Shown here one piece after another: positions 11,893-45,702 of a stretch of DNA of 64,000 bases (the first letter of the stretch is position 1; each line of letters opens with the position of its first letter). Both the position numbers and the translations under genes were made by a program. The stretch lies in the NCBI RefSeq assembly GCF_003334255.1, contig NZ_QOWU01000005.1, one strand, 5' to 3'. This DNA comes from Escherichia coli. Its GTDB lineage: Bacteria; Pseudomonadota; Gammaproteobacteria; Enterobacterales; Enterobacteriaceae. The notes under the pieces are model-generated. The model worked only from the letters and a program-made list of their open reading frames with translations, did no database searches and was not told the DNA's origin.

Positions 11893-11980
11893 TCGCCGGA
11901 TGCGGTGCGAGCGCCTTATCCGGCCTGGGGAATGAGCGATTTGTAGGCATGATAAGACGCGTTAGCGTCGCATCAGGCGA
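11893..11980. repeat. REP (repetitive extragenic palindrome) pair between convergent alkA and yegE
   Basis: gccggatgcggtgcgagcgccttatccggcc and gcatgataagacgcgttagcgtcgcatcaggc palindromic units. Confidence 0.7.
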
Positions 11981-18834: not shown

Positions 18835-18880
18835 GTCCTGTAGGCCTGATAAGACGCGTAAAGCGTCGCATCAGGCGTTC
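18835..18880. repeat. REP element downstream of asmA
   Basis: cctgtaggcctgataagacgcgtaaagcgtcgcatcaggcg. Confidence 0.7.
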
Positions 18881-20742: not shown

Positions 20743-21334
20743 AAATGCAATGTTGCAGCACTATTTATCTCATATTATTTGAGGGTAATAACCTCACATT
20801 ATCCCTGAATTAAAAGTGGTAATAATAAAACATTATTTAAGAAATATCGCATGTGGAGACACTATATTAAATATTGTCAACCTAAAGAAACTCCTAAAAA
20901 CCATATTGAATGACACTTAATATAATTCTTAAAAATAGCCAATTACCGAATTGTTATCTTGCCTGCTATTCCGTTAGCTGTAACACTTCCTCCTGCATTA
21001 TTGGAAAGCCAATATTCAATTACCATAATGTCACCTTATATTCGGAAGTTAATTTCCGTAATAACCCTTTCTCATCAACGACTGCATGCTGAGAGGGTGT
21101 GAAAAATTAAACTAAATCAGTGTATTGGTAGCTAAAAAGCCAGGGGCGGTAGCGTGTCTGGATGCCTGAAAGACCAGTCTGAATTATTCTGTCAATAGCC
21201 TGCGGATGAAATCAATTTTTTTAGGACTGATGCCAGTTAAATTTTTATTCAATTAACTGCAAGGTAAATGTGCATGGCGACATTGCTATTAATAGTGCAC
21301 AGGATAATTACTCTGCCAAAGTGATAAATAAACA
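20743..21334 (+). promoter_or_regulatory. cps (colanic acid) promoter and long 5' leader; RcsAB-dependent promoter expected here, exact box not resolved
   Basis: About 590-bp AT-rich non-coding region upstream of wza containing the JUMPstart/ops element; an RcsAB-box-like sequence taagaaatatcgca lies near 20836-20849 (tentative). Confidence 0.5.
21118..21155 (+). promoter_or_regulatory. JUMPstart element with ops (RfaH recruitment) site GGCGGTAGCGTG at 21144-21155
   Basis: cagtgtattggtagctaaaaagccaggggcggtagcgtg matches the 39-bp JUMPstart consensus; ops 12-mer present. Confidence 0.85.
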
Positions 21335-25088: not shown

Positions 25089-25092
25089 CGAC

Positions 25093-25150
25093 GCCTGCAT
25101 TCGCACCGCCCCGTAGGCCGGATAAGGCGTTCACGCCGCATCCGGCAAGC
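25093..25150. repeat. REP element between wzc and wcaA
   Basis: gcctgcattcgcaccgccccgtaggccggataaggcgttcacgccgcatccggc. Confidence 0.65.
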
Positions 25151-25180
25151 AAACCAGCTCATAAGCCGGGAGAACAACCT

Positions 25181-34058: not shown

Positions 34059-35495
34059 ATGGCGCAGTCGAAACTCTATCCAGTTGTGATGGCAGGTGGC
34101 TCCGGTAGCCGCTTATGGCCGCTTTCCCGCGTACTTTACCCCAAGCAGTTTTTATGCCTGAAAGGCGATCTCACCATGCTGCAAACCACCATCTGCCGCC
34201 TGAAAGGCGTAGAGTGCGAAAGCCCGGTGGTGATTTGCAATGAGCAGCACCGCTTTATTGTCGCGGAACAGCTGCGCCAACTGAACAAACTCACCGAGAA
34301 CATTATTCTCGAACCGGCAGGGCGTAACACTGCACCAGCCATTGCGCTGGCGGCGCTGGCGGCAACACGTCATAGTCCGGAGAGCGACCCGTTAATGCTG
34401 GTGCTGGCGGCGGATCATGTGATTGCCGATGAAGACGCGTTCCGTGCCGCCGTGCGTAATGCCATACCGTATGCCGAAGCGGGCAAGCTGGTGACCTTTG
34501 GCATTGTGCCGGATCTACCTGAAATCGGTTATGGCTATATTCGTCGCGGTGAAGTGTCTGCGGGTGAGCAGGATACGGTGGCCTTTGAAGTGGCGCAGTT
34601 TGTCGAAAAACCGAATCTGGAAACCGCTCAGGCCTATGTGGCAAGTGGCGAATATTACTGGAACAGCGGCATGTTCCTGTTCCGCGCCGGACGCTATCTC
34701 GAAGAACTGAAAAAATATCGCCCGGATATTCTCGATGCCTGTGAAAAAGCGATGAGCGCCGTCGATCCGGATCTCGATTTTATTCGCGTGGATGAAGAAG
34801 TGTTTCTCGCCTGCCCGGAAGAGTCGGTGGATTACGCGGTCATGGAACGTACGGCAGATGCTGTTGTGGTGCCGATGGATGCGGGCTGGAGCGATGTCGG
34901 CTCCTGGTCCTCATTATGGGAAATTAGCGCCCACACCGCCGAGGGCAACGTTTGCCACGGCGATGTGATTAATCACAAAACCGAAAACAGCTATGTGTAT
35001 GCCGAATCTGGCCTGGTCACCACCGTCGGGGTGAAAGATTTGGTGGTAGTGCAGACCAAAGATGCGGTGCTGATTGCCGACCGTAACGCGGTGCAGGATG
35101 TGAAAAAAGTGGTCGAGCAGATCAAAGCCGATGGTCGCCATGAGCATCGGGTGCATCGCGAAGTGTATCGTCCGTGGGGCAAATATGACTCTATCGACGC
35201 GGGCGACCGCTACCAGGTGAAACGCATCACCGTGAAACCGGGCGAGGGCTTGTCGGTACAGATGCACCATCACCGCGCGGAACACTGGGTAGTGGTAGCG
35301 GGAACGGCAAAAGTCACCATTGACGGTGATATCAAACTGCTTGGTGAAAACGAGTCCATTTATATTCCGCTGGGGGCGACGCACTGCCTGGAAAACCCGG
35401 GGAAAATTCCGCTCGATTTAATTGAAGTGCGCTCCGGCTCTTATCTCGAAGAGGATGATGTGGTGCGCTTCGCGGATCGCTACGGACGGGTGTAA
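34059..35495 (+). CDS. cpsB: Mannose-1-phosphate guanylyltransferase CpsB/ManC (478 aa)
   Basis: 478-aa ORF; nucleotidyltransferase N-terminus ([16 protein letters not shown]) and C-terminal cupin. Confidence 0.95.
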
Positions 35496-35686
<191 letters not shown>

Positions 35687-35775
35687 ATGAATGCGAAACC
35701 GCGGTGTAAATAATGACAAAAACAAAATTGGCCGTTTCGGTCAGGGCCAACTATTGCCTGAAAAAGGGTAACGAC

Positions 35776-37146
35776 ATGAAAAAATTAACCTGCTTTAAAG
35801 CCTATGATATTCGCGGGAAATTAGGCGAAGAACTGAATGAAGATATTGCCTGGCGCATTGGTCGCGCCTATGGCGAATTTCTCAAACCGAAAACCATTGT
35901 GTTAGGCGGTGATGTCCGTCTCACCAGCGAAACCTTAAAACTGGCGCTGGCAAAAGGTTTACAGGATGCGGGCGTTGACGTGCTGGATATCGGTATGTCC
36001 GGCACCGAAGAGATCTATTTCGCCACGTTCCATCTCGGCGTGGATGGCGGCATCGAAGTTACCGCCAGCCATAACCCGATGGATTATAACGGCATGAAAC
36101 TGGTGCGCGAAGGGGCTCGCCCGATCAGCGGTGATACCGGACTGCGCGATGTCCAGCGCCTGGCTGAAGCCAACGACTTTCCTCCCGTCGATGAAACCAA
36201 ACGCGGTCGCTATCAGCAAATCAACCTGCGTGACGCTTACGTTGATCACCTGTTCGGTTATATCAATGTCAAAAACCTCACGCCGCTCAAGCTGGTGATT
36301 AACTCCGGGAATGGCGCAGCGGGTCCGGTGGTGGACGCCATCGAAGCCCGCTTTAAAGCCCTCGGCGCACCCGTGGAATTAATCAAAGTGCACAACACAC
36401 CGGACGGCAATTTCCCCAACGGTATTCCTAACCCGCTGCTGCCGGAATGCCGCGACGACACCCGCAATGCGGTCATCAAACACGGCGCGGATATGGGCAT
36501 TGCCTTTGACGGTGATTTTGATCGCTGTTTCCTGTTTGACGAAAAAGGGCAGTTTATCGAGGGCTACTACATTGTCGGCCTGTTGGCAGAAGCATTCCTC
36601 GAAAAAAATCCCGGCGCGAAGATCATCCACGATCCTCGTCTCTCCTGGAATACCGTTGATGTGGTGACTGCCGCAGGTGGCACCCCGGTAATGTCGAAAA
36701 CCGGACACGCCTTTATTAAAGAACGTATGCGCAAGGAAGACGCCATCTACGGTGGCGAAATGAGCGCCCACCATTACTTCCGTGATTTCGCTTACTGCGA
36801 CAGCGGCATGATCCCATGGCTGCTGGTCGCCGAACTGGTGTGCCTGAAAGGAAAAACGCTGGGCGAACTGGTGCGCGACCGGATGGCGGCGTTTCCGGCA
36901 AGCGGTGAGATCAACAGCAAACTGGCGCAACCCGTTGAGGCGATTAACCGCGTGGAACAGCACTTTAGCCGTGAGGCGCTGGCGGTGGATCGCACCGATG
37001 GCATCAGCATGACCTTTGCCGACTGGCGCTTTAATCTGCGCTCCTCCAACACCGAACCGGTGGTGCGGTTGAATGTGGAATCACGCGGTGATGTGCCGCT
37101 GATGGAAGCGCGAACGCGAACTCTGCTGACGTTGCTGAACGAGTAA
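35776..37146 (+). CDS. cpsG: Phosphomannomutase CpsG/ManB (456 aa)
   Basis: Trimmed from the 477-aa ORF to [15 protein letters not shown]; active-site TASHNP motif. Confidence 0.93.
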
Positions 37147-37200
37147 TGTCGGATCTTCCCTTACCCCACTGCGGGTAAGGGGCTAATAACAGGAACAACG

Positions 37201-38595
37201 ATGACAAATCTAAAAAAGCGCGAGCGAGCGAAAACCAATGCATCGTTAATCTCTATGGTGCAACGCTTTTCAGATATCACCATCATGTTTGCCGGACTAT
37301 GGCTGGTTTGCGAAGTGAGCGGACTGTCATTCCTCTACATGCACCTGTTGGTGGCGTTGATTACGCTGGTGGTGTTCCAGATGCTGGGCGGCATCACCGA
37401 TTTTTATCGCTCATGGCGCGGTGTTCGGGCAGCGACAGAATTTGCCCTGTTGCTACAAAACTGGACGTTAAGCGTGATTTTCAGCGCCGGACTGGTGGCG
37501 TTCAATAATGATTTCGACACGCAACTGAAAATCTGGCTGGCGTGGTATGCGCTGACCAGTATCGGACTGGTGGTTTGCCGTTCGTGTATTCGCATTGGAG
37601 CGGGCTGGTTGCGTAATCATGGCTATAACAAGCGCATGGTCGCGGTGGCGGGGGATTTAGCCGCCGGACAAATGCTGATGGAGAGTTTCCGTAATCAGCC
37701 GTGGTTAGGGTTTGAAGTGGTGGGCGTTTACCACGACCCGAAACCGGGCGGCGTTTCTAACGACTGGGCGGGTAACCTGCAACAGCTGGTCGAGGATGCA
37801 AAAGCGGGCAAGATTCATAACGTCTATATCGCGATGCAAATGTGCGACGGCGCACGAGTGAAAAAACTGGTCCATCAACTGGCGGATACCACCTGTTCGG
37901 TGCTGCTGATCCCTGATGTCTTTACTTTCAACATTCTCCATTCCCGTATCGAAGAGATGAACGGCGTACCGGTGGTACCGCTATACGACACGCCGCTTTC
38001 CGGGGTAAACCGCCTGCTCAAACGTGCGGAAGATATTGTGCTGGCGACGCTTATTCTGCTGCTGATCTCCCCGGTGCTGTGCTGTATTGCGCTGGCGGTG
38101 AAACTCAGTTCGCCAGGGCCGGTTATTTTCCGCCAGACTCGCTATGGCATGGATGGCAAGCCGATCAAAGTGTGGAAGTTCCGTTCCATGAAAGTGATGG
38201 AGAACGACAAAGTGGTGACCCAGGCGACGCAGAACGATCCGCGCGTCACCAAAGTGGGGAACTTTCTGCGCCGCACCTCGCTGGACGAATTGCCGCAGTT
38301 TATCAATGTGCTGACTGGCGGGATGTCGATTGTCGGTCCGCGTCCGCATGCGGTGGCGCATAACGAACAGTATCGACAGCTCATTGAAGGCTACATGCTG
38401 CGCCATAAGGTGAAACCGGGCATTACCGGCTGGGCGCAGATTAACGGCTGGCGCGGCGAAACGGACACACTGGAGAAAATGGAAAAACGCGTCGAGTTCG
38501 ACCTTGAGTACATCCGCGAATGGAGCGTCTGGTTCGATATCAAAATCGTTTTCCTGACGGTATTCAAAGGCTTCGTTAACAAAGCGGCATATTGA
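37201..38595 (+). CDS. wcaJ: Undecaprenyl-phosphate glucose-1-phosphate transferase WcaJ (464 aa)
   Basis: 464-aa ORF; polytopic N-terminus and C-terminal sugar-transferase domain. Confidence 0.93.
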   Translation: MTNLKKRERAKTNASLISMVQRFSDITIMFAGLWLVCEVSGLSFLYMHLLVALITLVVFQMLGGITDFYRSWRGVRAATEFALLLQNWTLSVIFSAGLVAFNNDFDTQLKIWLAWYALTSIGLVVCRSCIRIGAGWLRNHGYNKRMVAVAGDLAAGQMLMESFRNQPWLGFEVVGVYHDPKPGGVSNDWAGNLQQLVEDAKAGKIHNVYIAMQMCDGARVKKLVHQLADTTCSVLLIPDVFTFNILHSRIEEMNGVPVVPLYDTPLSGVNRLLKRAEDIVLATLILLLISPVLCCIALAVKLSSPGPVIFRQTRYGMDGKPIKVWKFRSMKVMENDKVVTQATQNDPRVTKVGNFLRRTSLDELPQFINVLTGGMSIVGPRPHAVAHNEQYRQLIEGYMLRHKVKPGITGWAQINGWRGETDTLEKMEKRVEFDLEYIREWSVWFDIKIVFLTVFKGFVNKAAY

Positions 38596-38596
38596 T

Positions 38597-40075
38597 ATGA
38601 GCTTACGTGAAAAAACCATCAGCGGCGCGAAGTGGTCGGCGATTGCTACGGTGATCATCATCGGCCTCGGGCTGGTGCAGATGACCGTGCTGGCGCGGAT
38701 TATCGACAACCACCAGTTCGGTTTGCTTACCGTGTCGCTGGTGATCATCGCGCTGGCAGATACGCTTTCTGACTTCGGTATCGCTAACTCGATTATTCAG
38801 CGAAAAGAAATCAGTCACCTTGAACTCACCACGTTGTACTGGCTGAACGTCGGGCTGGGGATCGTGGTGTGCGTGGCGGTGTTTTTGTTGAGTGATCTCA
38901 TCGGCGACGTGCTGAATAACCCGGACCTGGCACCGTTGATTAAAACATTGTCGCTGGCGTTTGTGGTAATCCCCCACGGGCAACAGTTCCGCGCGTTGAT
39001 GCAGAAGGAGCTGGAGTTCAACAAAATCGGCATGATCGAAACCAGCGCGGTACTGGCGGGCTTCACTTTTACGGTGGTTAGCGCCCATTTCTGGCCGCTG
39101 GCGATGACCGCGATCCTCGGTTATCTGGTCAATAGTGCGGTGAGAACGCTGCTGTTTGGCTACTTTGGACGCAAAATTTATCGCCCCGGTCTGCATTTCT
39201 CGCTGGCGTCGGTGGCACCGAACTTACGCTTTGGTGCCTGGCTGACGGCGGACAGCATCATCAACTATCTCAACACCAACCTTTCAACGCTGGTGCTGGC
39301 GCGTATTCTCGGCGCGGGCGTGGCAGGGGGATACAACCTGGCGTACAACGTGGCCGTTGTGCCACCGATGAAGCTGAACCCGATCATCACCCGTGTGTTG
39401 TTTCCGGCGTTTGCCAAAATTCAGGACGACACCGAAAAGCTGCGCGTTAACTTCTACAAGCTGCTGTCGGTGGTGGGGATTATCAATTTTCCGGCGCTGC
39501 TGGGGCTGATGGTGGTGTCGAATAACTTTGTACCGCTGGTCTTTGGCGAAAAGTGGAACAGCATAATTCCGGTGCTGCAATTGCTGTGTATTGTGGGGCT
39601 ACTGCGCTCAGTGGGTAACCCGATTGGCTCGCTGCTGATGGCGAAAGCGCGGGTCGATATCAGCTTTAAATTCAACGTATTCAAAACCTTTCTGTTTATT
39701 CCGGCGATTGTTATTGGTGGGCAGATGGCGGGTGCAATCGGCGTCACGCTTGGTTTCCTGCTGGTGCAGATTATCAACACCATTCTGAGTTATTTCGTGA
39801 TGATTAAACCGGTGCTCGGTTCCAGTTATCGCCAGTACATCCTGAGTTTATGGCTGCCGTTTTATCTCTCGCTGCCGACGCTGGTGGTTAGTTATGCGCT
39901 GGGCATTGTGCTGAAAGGGCAACTGGTGCTGGGGATGCTGCTGGCGGTGCAAATAGCCACAGGCGTGCTGGCGTTTGTGGTGATGATTGTGTTGTCGCGC
40001 CATCCGCTGGTGGTGGAAGTGAAGCGTCAGTTTTGTCGCAGCGAAAAAATGAAAATGCTTTTGCGGGCCGGGTGA
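38597..40075 (+). CDS. wzxC: Colanic acid repeat-unit flippase WzxC (492 aa)
   Basis: 492-aa highly hydrophobic multi-TM ORF directly after wcaJ. Confidence 0.93.
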   Translation: MSLREKTISGAKWSAIATVIIIGLGLVQMTVLARIIDNHQFGLLTVSLVIIALADTLSDFGIANSIIQRKEISHLELTTLYWLNVGLGIVVCVAVFLLSDLIGDVLNNPDLAPLIKTLSLAFVVIPHGQQFRALMQKELEFNKIGMIETSAVLAGFTFTVVSAHFWPLAMTAILGYLVNSAVRTLLFGYFGRKIYRPGLHFSLASVAPNLRFGAWLTADSIINYLNTNLSTLVLARILGAGVAGGYNLAYNVAVVPPMKLNPIITRVLFPAFAKIQDDTEKLRVNFYKLLSVVGIINFPALLGLMVVSNNFVPLVFGEKWNSIIPVLQLLCIVGLLRSVGNPIGSLLMAKARVDISFKFNVFKTFLFIPAIVIGGQMAGAIGVTLGFLLVQIINTILSYFVMIKPVLGSSYRQYILSLWLPFYLSLPTLVVSYALGIVLKGQLVLGMLLAVQIATGVLAFVVMIVLSRHPLVVEVKRQFCRSEKMKMLLRAG

Positions 40076-40103
40076 ATGGTTGTTTTCGGTTCCGGCAATA
40101 GTT

Positions 40104-40370
40104 GCCGGATGCGGCGTGAACGCCTTATCCGGCCTACGGCTCTGTGCTCGGGTCTTGTAGGTCTGATAAGACGCGTCAGCGTCGCATCAGGCACTGAATG
40201 CCGGATGCTGAATAAACGCCTTATCCGGCCTACGGTTCTGTGCTCGGGACTTGTAGGCCTGATAAGACGCGCCAGCGTCGCATCAGGCACTGAATGCCGG
40301 ATGCGGCGTGAACGCCTTATCAGTCCTACGGTTCTGTGCTCGGACCTTGTAGGCCTGATAAGACGCGCCA
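40104..40370. repeat. BIME: three tandem REP-containing units between wzxC and wcaK
   Basis: Three near-identical units gccggatgcggcgtgaacgccttatccggcctacggttctgtgctcgg..cttgtaggcctgataagacgcg.cagcgtcgcatcaggcactgaat. Confidence 0.8.
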
Positions 40371-40434
40371 GGCAAAAAGCGGCAACGAACACAACAAACA
40401 CAGCCTCACCTGACATCAAATTTATGAGGAAAAA

Positions 40435-41715
40435 ATGAAATTACTGATTCTGGGCAACCACACTTGCGGCAATCGCGGCGACAGCGCCATCTTGCGCGGC
40501 TTACTTGATGCCATCAACATCCTCAATCCACACGCCGAAGTGGACGTAATGAGCCGCTATCCGGTCAGTTCTTCCTGGCTGCTCAACCGTCCGGTAATGG
40601 GCGATCCGCTGTTCCTGCAAATGAAACAACACAACAGCGCGGCGGGCGTTGTCGGGCGCGTTAAAAAAGTCCTCCGTCGCCGCTATCAGCACCAGGTATT
40701 GCTCTCGCGCGTCACCGACACTGGCAAGCTGCGTAATATCGCCATCGCCCAGGGATTCACCGACTTCGTGCGCTTGCTGTCAGGCTACGACGCCATTATT
40801 CAGGTCGGCGGATCGTTTTTTGTCGATCTCTATGGCGTGCCACAGTTTGAACATGCGCTTTGCACATTTATGGCGAAAAAGCCGCTGTTTATGATTGGTC
40901 ACAGCGTCGGTCCATTCCAGAATGAGCAATTTAACCAACTGGCGAACTACGTTTTTGGTCACTGCGACGCGCTGATCCTGCGCGAATCGGTCAGCCTTGA
41001 TTTGATGAAACGCAGCAATATCACTACCGCAAAAGTCGAACATGGCGTCGATACCGCGTGGCTGGTCGATCACCACACCGAAGATTTCACCGCCAGCTAT
41101 GCCGTTCAACACTGGCTGGACGTTGCCGCACAACAGAAAACGGTGGCCATTACCCTGCGCGAACTGGCACCGTTCGACAAACGTCTCGGCACCACTCAAC
41201 AAGCGTATGAAAAAGCCTTTGCCGGGGTGGTCAATCGCATTCTCGACGAAGGCTATCAGGTTATTGCGCTCTCCACCTGTACGGGTATCGACAGCTATAA
41301 CAAAGACGACCGCATGGTGGCGCTCAACCTGCGCCAGCACATCAGTGATCCTGCCCGTTATCACGTAGTGATGGATGAACTTAACGATCTGGAAATGGGC
41401 AAAATTCTCGGTGCCTGTGAACTCACCGTCGGTACGCGCCTGCACTCTGCCATTATCTCGATGAATTTTGCCACTCCGGCAATTGCCATCAACTACGAAC
41501 ATAAATCCGCCGGGATTATGCAACAGTTGGGACTGCCAGAGATGGCAATTGATATCCGTCATTTATTAGACGGCAGCCTGCAAGCGATGGTTGCGGATAC
41601 CTTAGGCCAGCTTCCGGCGCTGAATGCGCGACTTAGTGAAGCCGTCAGTCGTGAGCGTCAGACAGGAATGCAGATGGTGCAGTCTGTGCTTGAGCGCATC
41701 GGGGAGGTGAAATGA
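40435..41715 (+). CDS. wcaK: Colanic acid pyruvyl transferase WcaK (426 aa)
   Basis: 426-aa ORF; operon position. Confidence 0.9.
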   Translation: MKLLILGNHTCGNRGDSAILRGLLDAINILNPHAEVDVMSRYPVSSSWLLNRPVMGDPLFLQMKQHNSAAGVVGRVKKVLRRRYQHQVLLSRVTDTGKLRNIAIAQGFTDFVRLLSGYDAIIQVGGSFFVDLYGVPQFEHALCTFMAKKPLFMIGHSVGPFQNEQFNQLANYVFGHCDALILRESVSLDLMKRSNITTAKVEHGVDTAWLVDHHTEDFTASYAVQHWLDVAAQQKTVAITLRELAPFDKRLGTTQQAYEKAFAGVVNRILDEGYQVIALSTCTGIDSYNKDDRMVALNLRQHISDPARYHVVMDELNDLEMGKILGACELTVGTRLHSAIISMNFATPAIAINYEHKSAGIMQQLGLPEMAIDIRHLLDGSLQAMVADTLGQLPALNARLSEAVSRERQTGMQMVQSVLERIGEVK

Positions 41716-45663: not shown

Positions 45664-45702
45664 CAGTGCTCTGGTAGCTGTAAAGCCAGGGGCGGTAGCG
45701 TG
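45664..45702 (+). promoter_or_regulatory. JUMPstart element with ops site GGCGGTAGCGTG (45691-45702) upstream of the O-antigen operon
   Basis: cagtgctctggtagctgtaaagccaggggcggtagcgtg; near-identical to the copy upstream of wza. Confidence 0.85.

Follow-up and report, generated by a model that had tools for sequence, protein, structure and literature searches.

REP arrays of the BIME-2 class consist, as a review (PMC3333891) describes them, of alternating y and z2 units whose number of copies at the same locus varies between strains. The review also presents REPs as stabilisers of upstream mRNA and attenuators of transcription. An earlier note on the DNA analysed here had invoked this mechanism in general terms, and it is indeed documented, experimentally so for the closest paralogous array, REP325, which lies between yjdM and yjdN and from which naRNA4 originates. 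Deletion of REP325 shifts the yjdM/yjdN ratio from 35 to 1, the attenuation being partly Rho-dependent and the upstream mRNA being stabilised by the array; shorter fragments of REP325, with 2-4 hairpins, showed no sensitivity to Rho. Genome-wide, tandem gene pairs that contain REPs are biased toward the upstream gene (median log ratio 0.96 vs -0.09). In the colanic acid operon, as in group 1 capsule operons, a stem-loop attenuator is described downstream of wzc that is overcome by RfaH-type antitermination, and Iguchi et al. 2011 reported REP indels at wcaK-wzxC, cpsG-cpsB and wcaA-wzc. With this report and the annotation of REP144 in K-12, both arrays treated below and their indels between strains are already known. 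A further likeness is to the REPIN/RAYT system, in which an inverted REP doublet is amplified and its presence and copy number vary between strains.

The window, i.e., the whole 64-kb stretch of E. coli DNA under analysis, carries the colanic acid operon on the + strand from wza to wcaM, a length of roughly 23 kb, and the RefSeq annotation of matching genomes confirms the operon gene names, including those given in the earlier note to the genes that flank the arrays. Over the 64 kb, Tandem Repeats Finder detects no more than two large tandem arrays, one in the cpsB-cpsG gap (site A) and one in the wzxC-wcaK gap (site B), 14 and 19 kb into the operon (Table 1). The expectation of REP/BIME arrays in two gaps of one operon is thereby borne out with nearly exact coordinates, and the expected two to three tandem units agree with the 2.1 and 2.8 copies found, but each unit is a REP pair made of a forward Y and an inverted Z2. 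Likewise, both REP gaps in the operon are real, but a third site, occupied by one REP in the wzc-wcaA gap, had been missed. All REP copies lie between annotated genes, and the array gaps are two of the few junctions of the operon without translational coupling.

The Y and Z2 consensus sequences used in the search, which we take to be those of the two types, agree with the units of REP325. The Y-REP core GGATGCGGCGTGAACGCCTTATCC has 6 matches in the window vs 0.00 expected and the Z2 half GTAGGCCTGATAAGACGCG has 7 vs 0.02 expected; with 0-1 mismatches, the Y core occurs at 35520, 35608, 40107 and 40299 and the Z2 half at 35562, 35650, 40157, 40253 and 40349. A chance origin of the REP matches is excluded. 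The two gaps also fold far more stably than their dinucleotide shuffles (z = -9.5 and z = -6.2), and megablast with the array gives matches in 5426/5426 genomes, the median number of matching places being 37 per genome.

Table 1. Repeat units and neighbouring elements of the colanic acid operon in the window (free energies refer to the hairpin of the unit)
Feature	Position	Strand	Remarks
JUMPstart element, operon leader	21118..21156	+	ops GGCGGTAGCGTG at 21145-21156, RfaH loading site
Single inverted Y-type REP, wzc-wcaA gap	25113..25146	-	third REP site in operon
cpsB-cpsG gap (site A)	35496-35775		4 complete REPs plus a half
Array A repeat	35497-35685		period 88, 2.1 copies, 98% matches (Tandem Repeats Finder)
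Truncated Z2 REP, 3' arm only, CGTCGCATCAGGC	35497..35509	+	begins 1 nt past cpsB stop
Array A Y-type REP 1	35517..35550	+	-19.2 kcal/mol
Array A Z2-type REP 1, inverted	35562..35597	-	GTAGG... on + strand; -20.5 kcal/mol
Array A Y-type REP 2	35605..35638	+	-19.2 kcal/mol
Array A Z2-type REP 2, inverted	35650..35685	-	-20.5 kcal/mol
algC RNA motif RF02929	35722..35771	+	directly 5' of cpsG start codon
wzxC-wcaK gap (site B)	40076-40434		5 REPs plus truncated one
8-bp direct repeat flanking array B, left copy CGGCAATA	40092..40099	+	right copy 40381-40388
Array B repeat	40103-40371		period 96, 2.8 copies, 90% matches (Tandem Repeats Finder)
Array B Y-type REP 1	40104..40137	+	intact, -21.3 kcal/mol; 28 nt past wzxC stop
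Array B Z2-type REP 1, inverted	40157..40192	-	-17.8 kcal/mol
Array B Y-type REP 2	40200..40233	+	inner stem and loop mutated GCTGAATAAACGCC; -11.4 kcal/mol
Array B Z2-type REP 2, inverted	40253..40288	-	-20.5 kcal/mol
Array B Y-type REP 3	40296..40329	+	3' arm mutated (TCAGTC); -9.5 kcal/mol
Array B Z2-type REP 3, inverted	40349..40371	-	truncated

Array A begins with a 13-nt half Z2, which is followed by Y, Z2, Y and Z2 units with linkers of 7 nt (head-to-head) and 11 nt (tail-to-tail). The hairpins of its four complete REPs are all intact, and the first Y unit is a variant (GTCGGA...TCCGAC) in which the stem change is compensated. The algC motif stands 36 nt downstream of this array, outside the repeat. 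Array B has the order Y, Z2, Y, Z2, Y and truncated Z2 with linkers of 7 nt head-to-head and 19 nt tail-to-tail, and its third Z2 unit can form no hairpin because an internal deletion of ~11 nt has removed the 3' arm. The left copy of the 8-bp repeat that flanks array B reads CGGCAACG in other alleles, and the empty allele of site B retains a single copy, CGGCAACG, which matches a REP end. The long untranslated gap is followed by an A/C-rich, G-poor tail of 63 nt (A30 C16 G10 T7).

The units are imperfect Y/Z2 palindromes of 34-36 nt with a GTAG/CTAC end tag, are extragenic and have many genomic copies, as is characteristic of REPs, and their intact hairpins have energies of -18 to -21 kcal/mol. 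Both arrays are of the BIME-2 type, with Y> Z2< Y> Z2< alternation, and share with BIME-2 elements and REP144 the tandem copies, the extragenic location and the strain-variable number. Their linkers are short too; BIME-2 elements are described with a short S linker joining REP and iREP and with flanking motifs of type s, l or r. The wzxC-wcaK array occupies the same genomic position as REP144 of K-12 and differs from it in having three pairs rather than two, in the decay of its units and in the truncation of its last Z2. For the cpsB-cpsG array, K-12 has no complete REP as a counterpart, and the 13-nt half Z2 is the sole REP remnant at that junction. Assignment to BIME-1, in which one y unit and one z1 unit form a single-copy pair around a long L linker with an IHF site, was rejected, as the partner of Y is Z2 (GCCTGATAAGACGCG...CGTCGCATCAGGC) with no Z1, the linkers measure 7-19 nt and the units are in tandem; matches to Z1 are artefacts of a permissive fuzzy search and overlap palindromic Y units. 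REP325 is likewise an intra-operon array of the Y/Z2 BIME-2 class with tandem units of ~100 nt, but it contains about 11-12 REPs with a period of 100, compared with 4-6 REPs and a period of 88 or 96 in the cps arrays, and its orientation along transcription is the opposite one (Z2> Y< in REP325, Y> Z2< in the cps arrays). Furthermore, an RfaH/ops leader precedes the cps operon and none is reported for yjdMN.

The Rfam family naRNA4 (RF02564) matches both arrays above its gathering score of 59.5, on the minus strand in each case (75.1 bits for 35565-35635, 67.7 bits for 40256-40326). These scores would fit nucleoid-associated RNAs like naRNA4 that are made from the arrays, bind HU and contribute to chromosome organisation, an idea to which we give almost no credence, as both matches fall on the antisense strand of the operon, no sigma-70 consensus internal promoter was found in the gaps on either strand, and the proposed function of naRNA4 is itself disputed by a 2026 study of REP325. 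The matches mirror the Y/Z2 sequence held in common with REP325, and a distinct naRNA4 gene was rejected for this reason and for their antisense orientation.

The comparison of REP copy number across strains that the earlier note had called for was run on 59 E. coli genomes per site. The wzxC-wcaK gap contains 0-6 Y/Z2 pairs, its length falling into classes of 70-72, 179, 274-276, 359-371, 468, 563-565 and 661 bp, and the cpsB-cpsG gap contains 0-3 pairs, with none in K-12 and length classes of 100-104, 192, 280 and 368 bp; checked by sequence, the length classes correspond to 0-6 Y/Z2 pairs. Natural alleles with 0, 1, 2, 3 and 6 pairs at wzxC-wcaK occur in GF130, P4, K-12, ES6 and PBP5. The array is missing from 8/59 genomes at site B and from 19/59 at site A. 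Hairpin integrity across alleles was followed by substitution-only matching, which misses units shifted by 1-nt indels and is used qualitatively. Within clones the wzxC-wcaK gap is constant, measuring 275 bp in all K-12 derivatives, 179 bp in all O157:H7 genomes and 468 bp in all ST131-type genomes. In 4/59 genomes a foreign-type allele (L005) replaces both the BIME and the ribosome-binding region of wcaK.

The foreign-type allele would suit a role of the arrays as recombination hot spots, that is, as junctions where strains swap the segment of O-antigen and distal colanic acid genes by homologous exchange, as would the observations of Iguchi et al. 2011 that positions of REP indels, including those in the wcaK-wzxC gap, coincide with changes in sequence similarity and that the phylogeny of wcaKLM disagrees with phylogroup. 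We nevertheless regard such a role as distinctly unlikely, given that the flanks of array B in the window belong to the same rare haplotype, that divergence from K-12 is smooth per gene with no step at either array, and that the mosaic boundary with respect to strain 214-4 is located at about 38470 within wcaJ, 1.6 kb off the array. For the genome of the window, a recombination breakpoint at array B was rejected on these three grounds.

The empty alleles also bear on a possible role at the DNA level, in which gyrase is recruited to the arrays and removes the positive supercoils that accumulate in front of RNA polymerase, so that the arrays serve as topological relief points or insulators. BIME-2 is the class reported to be bound and cleaved by gyrase in vivo (Espeli and Boccard 1997), and the operon is long, strongly inducible and codes for membrane proteins, with the arrays at 14 and 19 kb from its start. 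Any such function would however be dispensable in the many E. coli genomes that have no array and in most other genera, and the 2026 REP325 study reports that deletion of that array was without chromosome-level effect, which makes a topological role doubtful.

In other enterobacterial species the wzxC-wcaK gap has a median length of 30.5 bp and is <=40 bp, with nothing inserted, in 47/76, and in several genera the junction has been colonised independently by different palindromic families. The junction after cpsB shows a different pattern, as 62/69 other species have a REP-type hairpin directly after the gene vs 43% of shuffled controls. These post-cpsB (manC) hairpins of other species are located upstream of the conserved algC motif, and the REP family that occupies such sites differs between genera, with unrelated palindromic families at wzxC-wcaK and cpsG-wcaJ in different lineages. 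An Enterobacter-type REP, presumably multi-copy in its genomes, was found by blastn-short only in the cpsB-cpsG gaps of mostly coding 15-kb loci.

Where the hairpin follows the stop codon closely it could act on translation, by stalling the ribosome near the stop and causing mRNA cleavage with less CpsB or WzxC as a result. REPs <16 nt from a stop codon are reported, in work cited by PMC12306157, to lower translation, and 46/62 of the post-cpsB hairpins of other genera begin <=15 nt from the stop. In the window, in contrast, the first complete hairpin begins 21 nt past the cpsB stop (35517 vs 35495), and at site B the first hairpin begins 28 nt past the wzxC stop (40104 vs 40075), both beyond the reported range, and the sequence that abuts the cpsB stop is a half REP unable to form a hairpin. 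A translation-stalling REP was rejected because the spacing at cpsB and wzxC is wider than the rule of <16 nt allows, and control of translation by the arrays is very improbable.

The third REP site differs from the arrays in its constancy. The wzc-wcaA REP is present in all sampled E. coli genomes and is never lost, it sits at the position given in the literature for the stem-loop attenuator that follows wzc, and the post-wzc hairpin in the window is itself a Y-type REP. Like this attenuator, the two arrays put stable hairpins where neighbouring genes of the operon are not coupled, but after wzc there is only one hairpin unit, retained by every sampled E. coli genome, whereas the arrays are multi-copy and often absent. 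Together with the prevalence of post-cpsB hairpins, the constant wzc-wcaA REP hints that a hairpin at some junctions may be selected. It is conceivable, if improbable, and in keeping also with the turnover of palindromic families at these sites between genera, that REP-type hairpins are selected at particular junctions and that the E. coli arrays are expanded, variable descendants of a functional segment boundary. If so, the boundary would act as an exonuclease barrier or a ribosome-stall site that splits the 23-kb mRNA into stability modules, and copy number would be a heritable dial for capsule gene dosage.

Another possibility is that the arrays are regulatory, i.e., that they protect the upstream mRNA and partly terminate transcription and thereby keep the distal genes (cpsG onward, wcaK-L-M) at a set lower level. 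REP325, an intra-operon array of the Y/Z2 class, acts in exactly this manner, the upstream bias of REP-containing tandem pairs is genome-wide, and a long untranslated gap with an A/C-rich, G-poor tail could expose the RNA to Rho. However, REP325 fragments with a hairpin number of 2-4 are insensitive to Rho, and the cps arrays are inverted relative to REP325. Moreover, no intrinsic terminator was found in or beside either array in a scan of 34800-41200, and no T-run follows any REP hairpin of either array. Neither array is an intrinsic terminator, as the U-tract is absent. RfaH-modified polymerase resists Rho-dependent termination, and the leader of the operon contains an ops element at which RfaH loads. 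Occupancy of RfaH over wza-wcaM has been demonstrated by ChIP, and the only Rho-binding peak that Harris 2026 lists as touching REP144 is antisense.

Expression of the induced operon bears on the regulatory reading as well. In K-12 under Rcs induction, with its two wzxC-wcaK pairs, expression falls along the operon from a log2FC of 7.2 at wcaD-F to 2.7 at wcaM, but the values on the two sides of the array are 4.45 and 4.45, without a step, and steeper falls are seen further down, where the junctions have no REP (wcaL 3.63, wcaM 2.71). These data are fold changes from a microarray of one strain and are compatible with a modest (<2-fold) effect or an effect on half-life; a literature search for a second expression dataset of the induced operon found none beyond this colicin M array. 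Uninduced counts of 36 for wzxC vs 91 for wcaK likewise give no upstream bias. As copy number varies down to zero at both sites and the wzxC-wcaK junction is empty in most other genera, a set lower level of the distal genes is unlikely. The genome-wide upstream bias of REP gene pairs is a counterpoint that makes some effect plausible.

The more specific proposal of the earlier note, that the arrays may set the stoichiometry between the precursor genes and wcaK-L-M, finds no support. A fixed role of this kind is at odds with a copy number of 0-6 or 0-3 pairs and with other genera that are mostly without the insert. It is equally at odds with the lack of a U-tract or promoter, the presence of ops/RfaH and the absence of a step in K-12, and with the decay of several hairpins of array B. 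What the arrays may do is modulate expression from strain to strain.

Taken together, the data make it probable that the arrays are tolerated, semi-selfish BIME-2 repeats that exert a small, lineage-variable modulation and provide no stoichiometry set-point. A REP doublet would have taken up residence at each junction, and the resulting unit of 88 or 96 nt would expand and contract through recombination between copies or through slippage, possibly with the aid of the REP-associated transposase TnpA_REP. This differs from a strict REPIN/RAYT system in that the window contains no transposase gene, and the arrays are also compatible with slippage or unequal recombination. Empty alleles would arise by deletion between short direct repeats, leaving REP-end scars. 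With transcription starting at the wza promoter, hairpins of -18 to -21 kcal/mol would form at every intact unit, and their most likely effect on the RNA would be to block 3'-to-5' exonucleases, so that decay intermediates ending in the array would shield the upstream segment. Read-through into cpsG or wcaK would be only weakly attenuated, as expected from the missing U-tract, from the modification of the polymerase by RfaH at ops and from the lack of a step in K-12.

On their own the arrays matter little, as REP144 is annotated and the strain indels are published. They do provide a natural series of alleles (0-6 and 0-3 pairs) against a similar operon background with RfaH antitermination, which could be used to assess the effect of REP copy number on upstream and downstream expression, a question reopened by the work on REP325. 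Being clone-stable and lineage-variable, the gaps can also serve as typing markers, and collapse of the repeats is possible in short-read assemblies. In addition, mechanical ORF callers place spurious ORFs of 120-130 aa across the arrays.

The cpsB-cpsG gap (site A) and the wzxC-wcaK gap (site B) of the colanic acid operon hold the only two substantial tandem arrays that Tandem Repeats Finder detects in the 64 kb. The repeat calls, the REP core counts (6 and 7 occurrences in the window versus 0.00 and 0.02 expected from shuffles) and the folding of the two gaps, which is more stable than that of shuffles (z = -9.5 and -6.2), confirm the REP/BIME arrays placed in both gaps by the earlier note, whose coordinates are accurate. 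Its count of two to three tandem units agrees with the 2.1 and 2.8 copies found, but each unit is a REP pair and not a single REP, with a forward Y (GCCGGATGCGGCGTGAACGCCTTATCCGGCCTAC) followed tail-to-tail by an inverted Z2 (GTAGGCCTGATAAGACGCG..CGTCGCATCAGGC). At site A, a 13-nt half Z2 that begins 1 nt past the cpsB stop codon precedes Y, Z2, Y and Z2; all four hairpins are intact (-19 to -20.5 kcal/mol), the two units are 98% identical, and the Y of this site is a variant in which a stem change is compensated (GTCGGA...TCCGAC). The order at site B is Y, Z2, Y, Z2, Y and truncated Z2. This site is partly decayed, as the second Y is mutated in its inner stem and loop (-11.4 kcal/mol), the third Y is mutated in its 3' arm (-9.5 kcal/mol) and about 11 nt are missing from the final Z2. 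Stalling of ribosomes by a REP hairpin near a stop codon is unlikely at either site, since the rule as cited in PMC12306157 concerns REPs whose distance to the stop codon is under 16 nt and the first full hairpins begin 21 nt (cpsB) and 28 nt (wzxC) past theirs. Mechanical ORF calling places one ORF of 120 aa and one of 130 aa essentially inside array B; both are artefacts of the repeats and carry no PGAP annotation in the matching genome.

Positions of repeats, RNA motifs and related features in the window
Feature	Position	Strand	Description
SIB RNA genes, two adjacent	4827-4969, 5156-5304	-	Rfam RF00113, 140 and 150 bits
REPs outside operon	11893-11978		Y + Z2 pair
REP outside operon	18837-18876		single Z2
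JUMPstart 1	21118-21156	+	wza leader; ops GGCGGTAGCGTG at 21145-21156
wzc-wcaA gap	25089-25180		
Third operon REP	25113-25146	-	single inverted Y in wzc-wcaA gap, -21.6 kcal/mol
cpsB-cpsG gap	cpsB end 35495, cpsG start 35776	+	280 bp
Array A	35497-35685		period 88, 2.1 copies, 98% matches (Tandem Repeats Finder)
algC RNA motif	35722-35771	+	Rfam RF02929, 78 bits; directly 5' of cpsG start codon, 36 nt downstream of array A
wzxC-wcaK gap	wzxC end 40075, wcaK start 40435	+	359 bp
Array B	40103-40371		period 96, 2.8 copies, 90% matches (Tandem Repeats Finder)
8-bp direct repeat flanking array B	40092-40099, 40381-40388		CGGCAACG in most alleles
120-aa and 130-aa ORFs (in that order)	40076-40438, 40027-40419	+, -	mechanical ORFs
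JUMPstart 2	45664-45702	+	upstream of O167-type O-antigen genes

Both arrays fit the layout of BIME-2, defined by y and z2 with short linkers in multiple tandem copies of strain-variable number (PMC3333891); BIME-1 does not fit. Rfam also reports naRNA4 above threshold in both arrays, but they are unlikely to be naRNA4, as the matches fall on the minus strand. Direct sequence comparison shows that REP325, the naRNA4 source in the K-12 yjdM-yjdN operon, runs Z2> Y< along its operon whereas the cps arrays run Y> Z2<, so that the element class is shared, the orientation is opposite and the minus-strand call follows from the inversion. REP arrays at these junctions have been described before: REPs in the wcaK-wzxC, cpsG-cpsB and wcaA-wzc gaps, together with strain-to-strain REP indels, were listed by Iguchi et al. 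2011 (PMC3158064), and the K-12 wzxC-wcaK array is annotated as REP144 in the supplement to the Harris et al. 2026 preprint. The operon carries a third, single REP in the wzc-wcaA gap, absent from the earlier note, which was kept by all strains of Iguchi et al. 2011 (PMC3158064); this gap measures 92, 95, 128 or 177 bp and is never REP-free in the 59 sampled E. coli genomes. This REP is placed where the literature puts a 'stem-loop attenuator' directly after wzc.

Comparison of REP copy number across strains, as the earlier note had proposed, gives 0-6 pairs at wzxC-wcaK and 0-3 pairs at cpsB-cpsG in 59 genomes per site, evenly spaced down each match ranking and retrieved with flanking coding sequence only as query. 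The wzxC-wcaK ladder is one of Y/Z2 pairs by sequence, with one genome fetched per length class, and its length is constant within clones (275 bp in all K-12 derivatives, 179 bp in all O157:H7 and 468 bp in all ST131-type genomes). The 'empty' K-12 allele of site A retains the 13-nt half Z2, and the empty site-B allele has one copy of the 8-bp repeat CGGCAACG, which looks like the terminus of an inverted Y REP and flanks array B on both sides. The half-Z2 scar and the single repeat suggest that the 'empty' alleles may have arisen by secondary deletion between short direct repeats; the empty site-B allele may be a deletion scar rather than a virgin site.

Gap length classes among E. coli genomes, 59 per site
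Gap	Length (bp)	Genomes	Content
wzxC-wcaK	70-72	8	empty
wzxC-wcaK	145	1	single unit, partly deleted
wzxC-wcaK	161	4	unrelated non-REP sequence
wzxC-wcaK	179	9	one pair
wzxC-wcaK	274-276	20	two pairs (K-12)
wzxC-wcaK	359	1	the window
wzxC-wcaK	371	2	three pairs
wzxC-wcaK	468	5	four pairs
wzxC-wcaK	563-565	7	five pairs
wzxC-wcaK	661	2	six pairs (12 REPs)
cpsB-cpsG	100-104	19	without complete REP (K-12 included)
cpsB-cpsG	192	33	one pair
cpsB-cpsG	280	5	two pairs (the window)
cpsB-cpsG	368	2	three pairs

The region finds megablast matches in 5426 of 5426 complete E. coli genomes, and RefSeq annotation of the matching genomes identifies the flanking genes as cpsB and cpsG for array A and wzxC and wcaK for array B. 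The coding flanks of these junctions have no match in about 760-780 of the 5426, which indicates that roughly 14% of E. coli genomes lack the distal colanic acid genes or have others in their place. In the best-matching genome, strain 214-4, the colanic acid operon is complete (wza to wcaM, + strand), and galF and an O167-type O-antigen cluster come after it; this strain has one pair at site A versus two in the window. A role of the arrays as recombination hot spots has published support in other strains (Iguchi et al. 2011, PMC3158064), but is quite improbable here: both flanks of array B belong to one rare haplotype, divergence from K-12 is smooth in the window, and the mosaic recombination boundary with strain 214-4 lies at about 38470, inside wcaJ and not at a REP array, with divergence of about 3% as far as 38469 and near-identity beyond it (9 mismatches over 22 kb, O-antigen cluster included).

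The proposal that the arrays set the stoichiometry between precursor genes and wcaK-L-M rests on a mechanism that is plausible from REP325, whose deletion leaves less transcript of the upstream gene yjdM and more of the downstream yjdN, taking their ratio from 35 down to 1. On plasmids REP325 lowers read-through about 8-fold, bicyclomycin raises its read-through from 23% to 39%, and fragments with 2-4 hairpins only are not Rho-sensitive. Together with the upstream bias in expression of REP-separated tandem gene pairs genome-wide, these data make a stabiliser or attenuator mechanism legitimate in general. For the two arrays, the ops element in the leader and the RfaH ChIP signal reported across wza-wcaM (PMC9765446) imply a termination-resistant elongation complex, and neither a U-tract terminator nor a consensus promoter is found in 34800-41200. 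In colicin-M-induced MG1655 (PMC3599342), log2 fold changes are 5.10 for cpsB, 5.15 for cpsG, 4.82 for wcaJ, 4.45 for wzxC, 4.45 for wcaK, 3.63 for wcaL and 2.71 for wcaM, so that no step occurs across the two-pair REP144 and bigger drops fall at REP-free junctions. In the Harris et al. 2026 supplement, uninduced counts are 36 for wzxC and 91 for wcaK, and the sole Rho-binding peak at REP144 is antisense. Taken with the hypervariable, often zero copy number and the absence of the site-B array from most genera, these observations argue that any effect of the two arrays is small and without a fixed set-point; the setting of stoichiometry is unsupported, and a regulatory set-point is unlikely. 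A DNA-level role in gyrase action or topology would suit the BIME-2 class and a long inducible operon, but empty alleles would make it dispensable and it appears similarly doubtful. The arrays are most probably tolerated BIME-2 repeats, growing and shrinking at non-coupled junctions; their identity, anatomy and distribution are shown, and their effects on RNA are inferred. Their most probable effect at the RNA level would be as exonuclease barriers shielding upstream decay intermediates, with read-through attenuation presumably weak and hidden by RfaH.

Scanning with WcaK gave 80 loci in some 25 genera of enterobacteria. The median wzxC-wcaK gap outside E. coli is 30.5 bp (at most 40 bp in 47 of 76); large gaps usually carry another palindromic family, CCCTCTCCC...GGGAGAGGG in Enterobacter, Lelliottia and Pluralibacter relatives, and the Citrobacter gap a distinct REP. 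These short or differently filled gaps indicate that the E. coli site-B array is a lineage-specific insertion. The foreign family is often also at the cpsG-wcaJ junction, which in E. coli is only 54 bp. An unrelated, G+C-rich, box-C-like family (CCCTCACCCTAACCCTCTCCCC...GGGGAGAGGG) occupies the wzxC-wcaK gaps of seven loci (L016, L021, L023, L033, L052, L069 and L082) and, in many loci, a position about 3 kb upstream of wcaK at the cpsG-wcaJ junction, with both junctions occupied in some genera; different lineages have been colonised at different junctions of the operon. In E. coli SF-166, which represents the 161-bp allele of 4 of the 59 genomes, a box-C-like palindrome stands in place of the BIME and the ribosome-binding region GAGGTCATA is different and resembles that of other genera. 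The sequence suggests that the wcaK-side segment of this allele may have been imported.

The site A gap in other genera is typically about 109 bp, with a conserved algC-motif region and a hairpin just past cpsB that we take to be REP-like and from the respective genome's own family. At -12 kcal/mol or better this hairpin is present in 62 of 69 species (loci L013-L090) versus 43% of shuffled controls, and at -15 kcal/mol in 74% versus 19%; the species are phylogenetically non-independent, which makes the comparison a lead rather than a result. It begins at most 15 nt from the stop codon in 46 of the 62 and suggests a conserved position with turnover of the REP family. Positional selection of a hairpin after cpsB and after wzc across Enterobacteriaceae, despite such turnover, is a tentative and rather improbable extension. 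Nearly all other genera examined also keep the algC motif sequence itself between cpsB and cpsG. Elsewhere in the window, two adjacent SIB RNA genes encode RNA antitoxins belonging to type I toxin-antitoxin loci of the Ibs/Sib kind.
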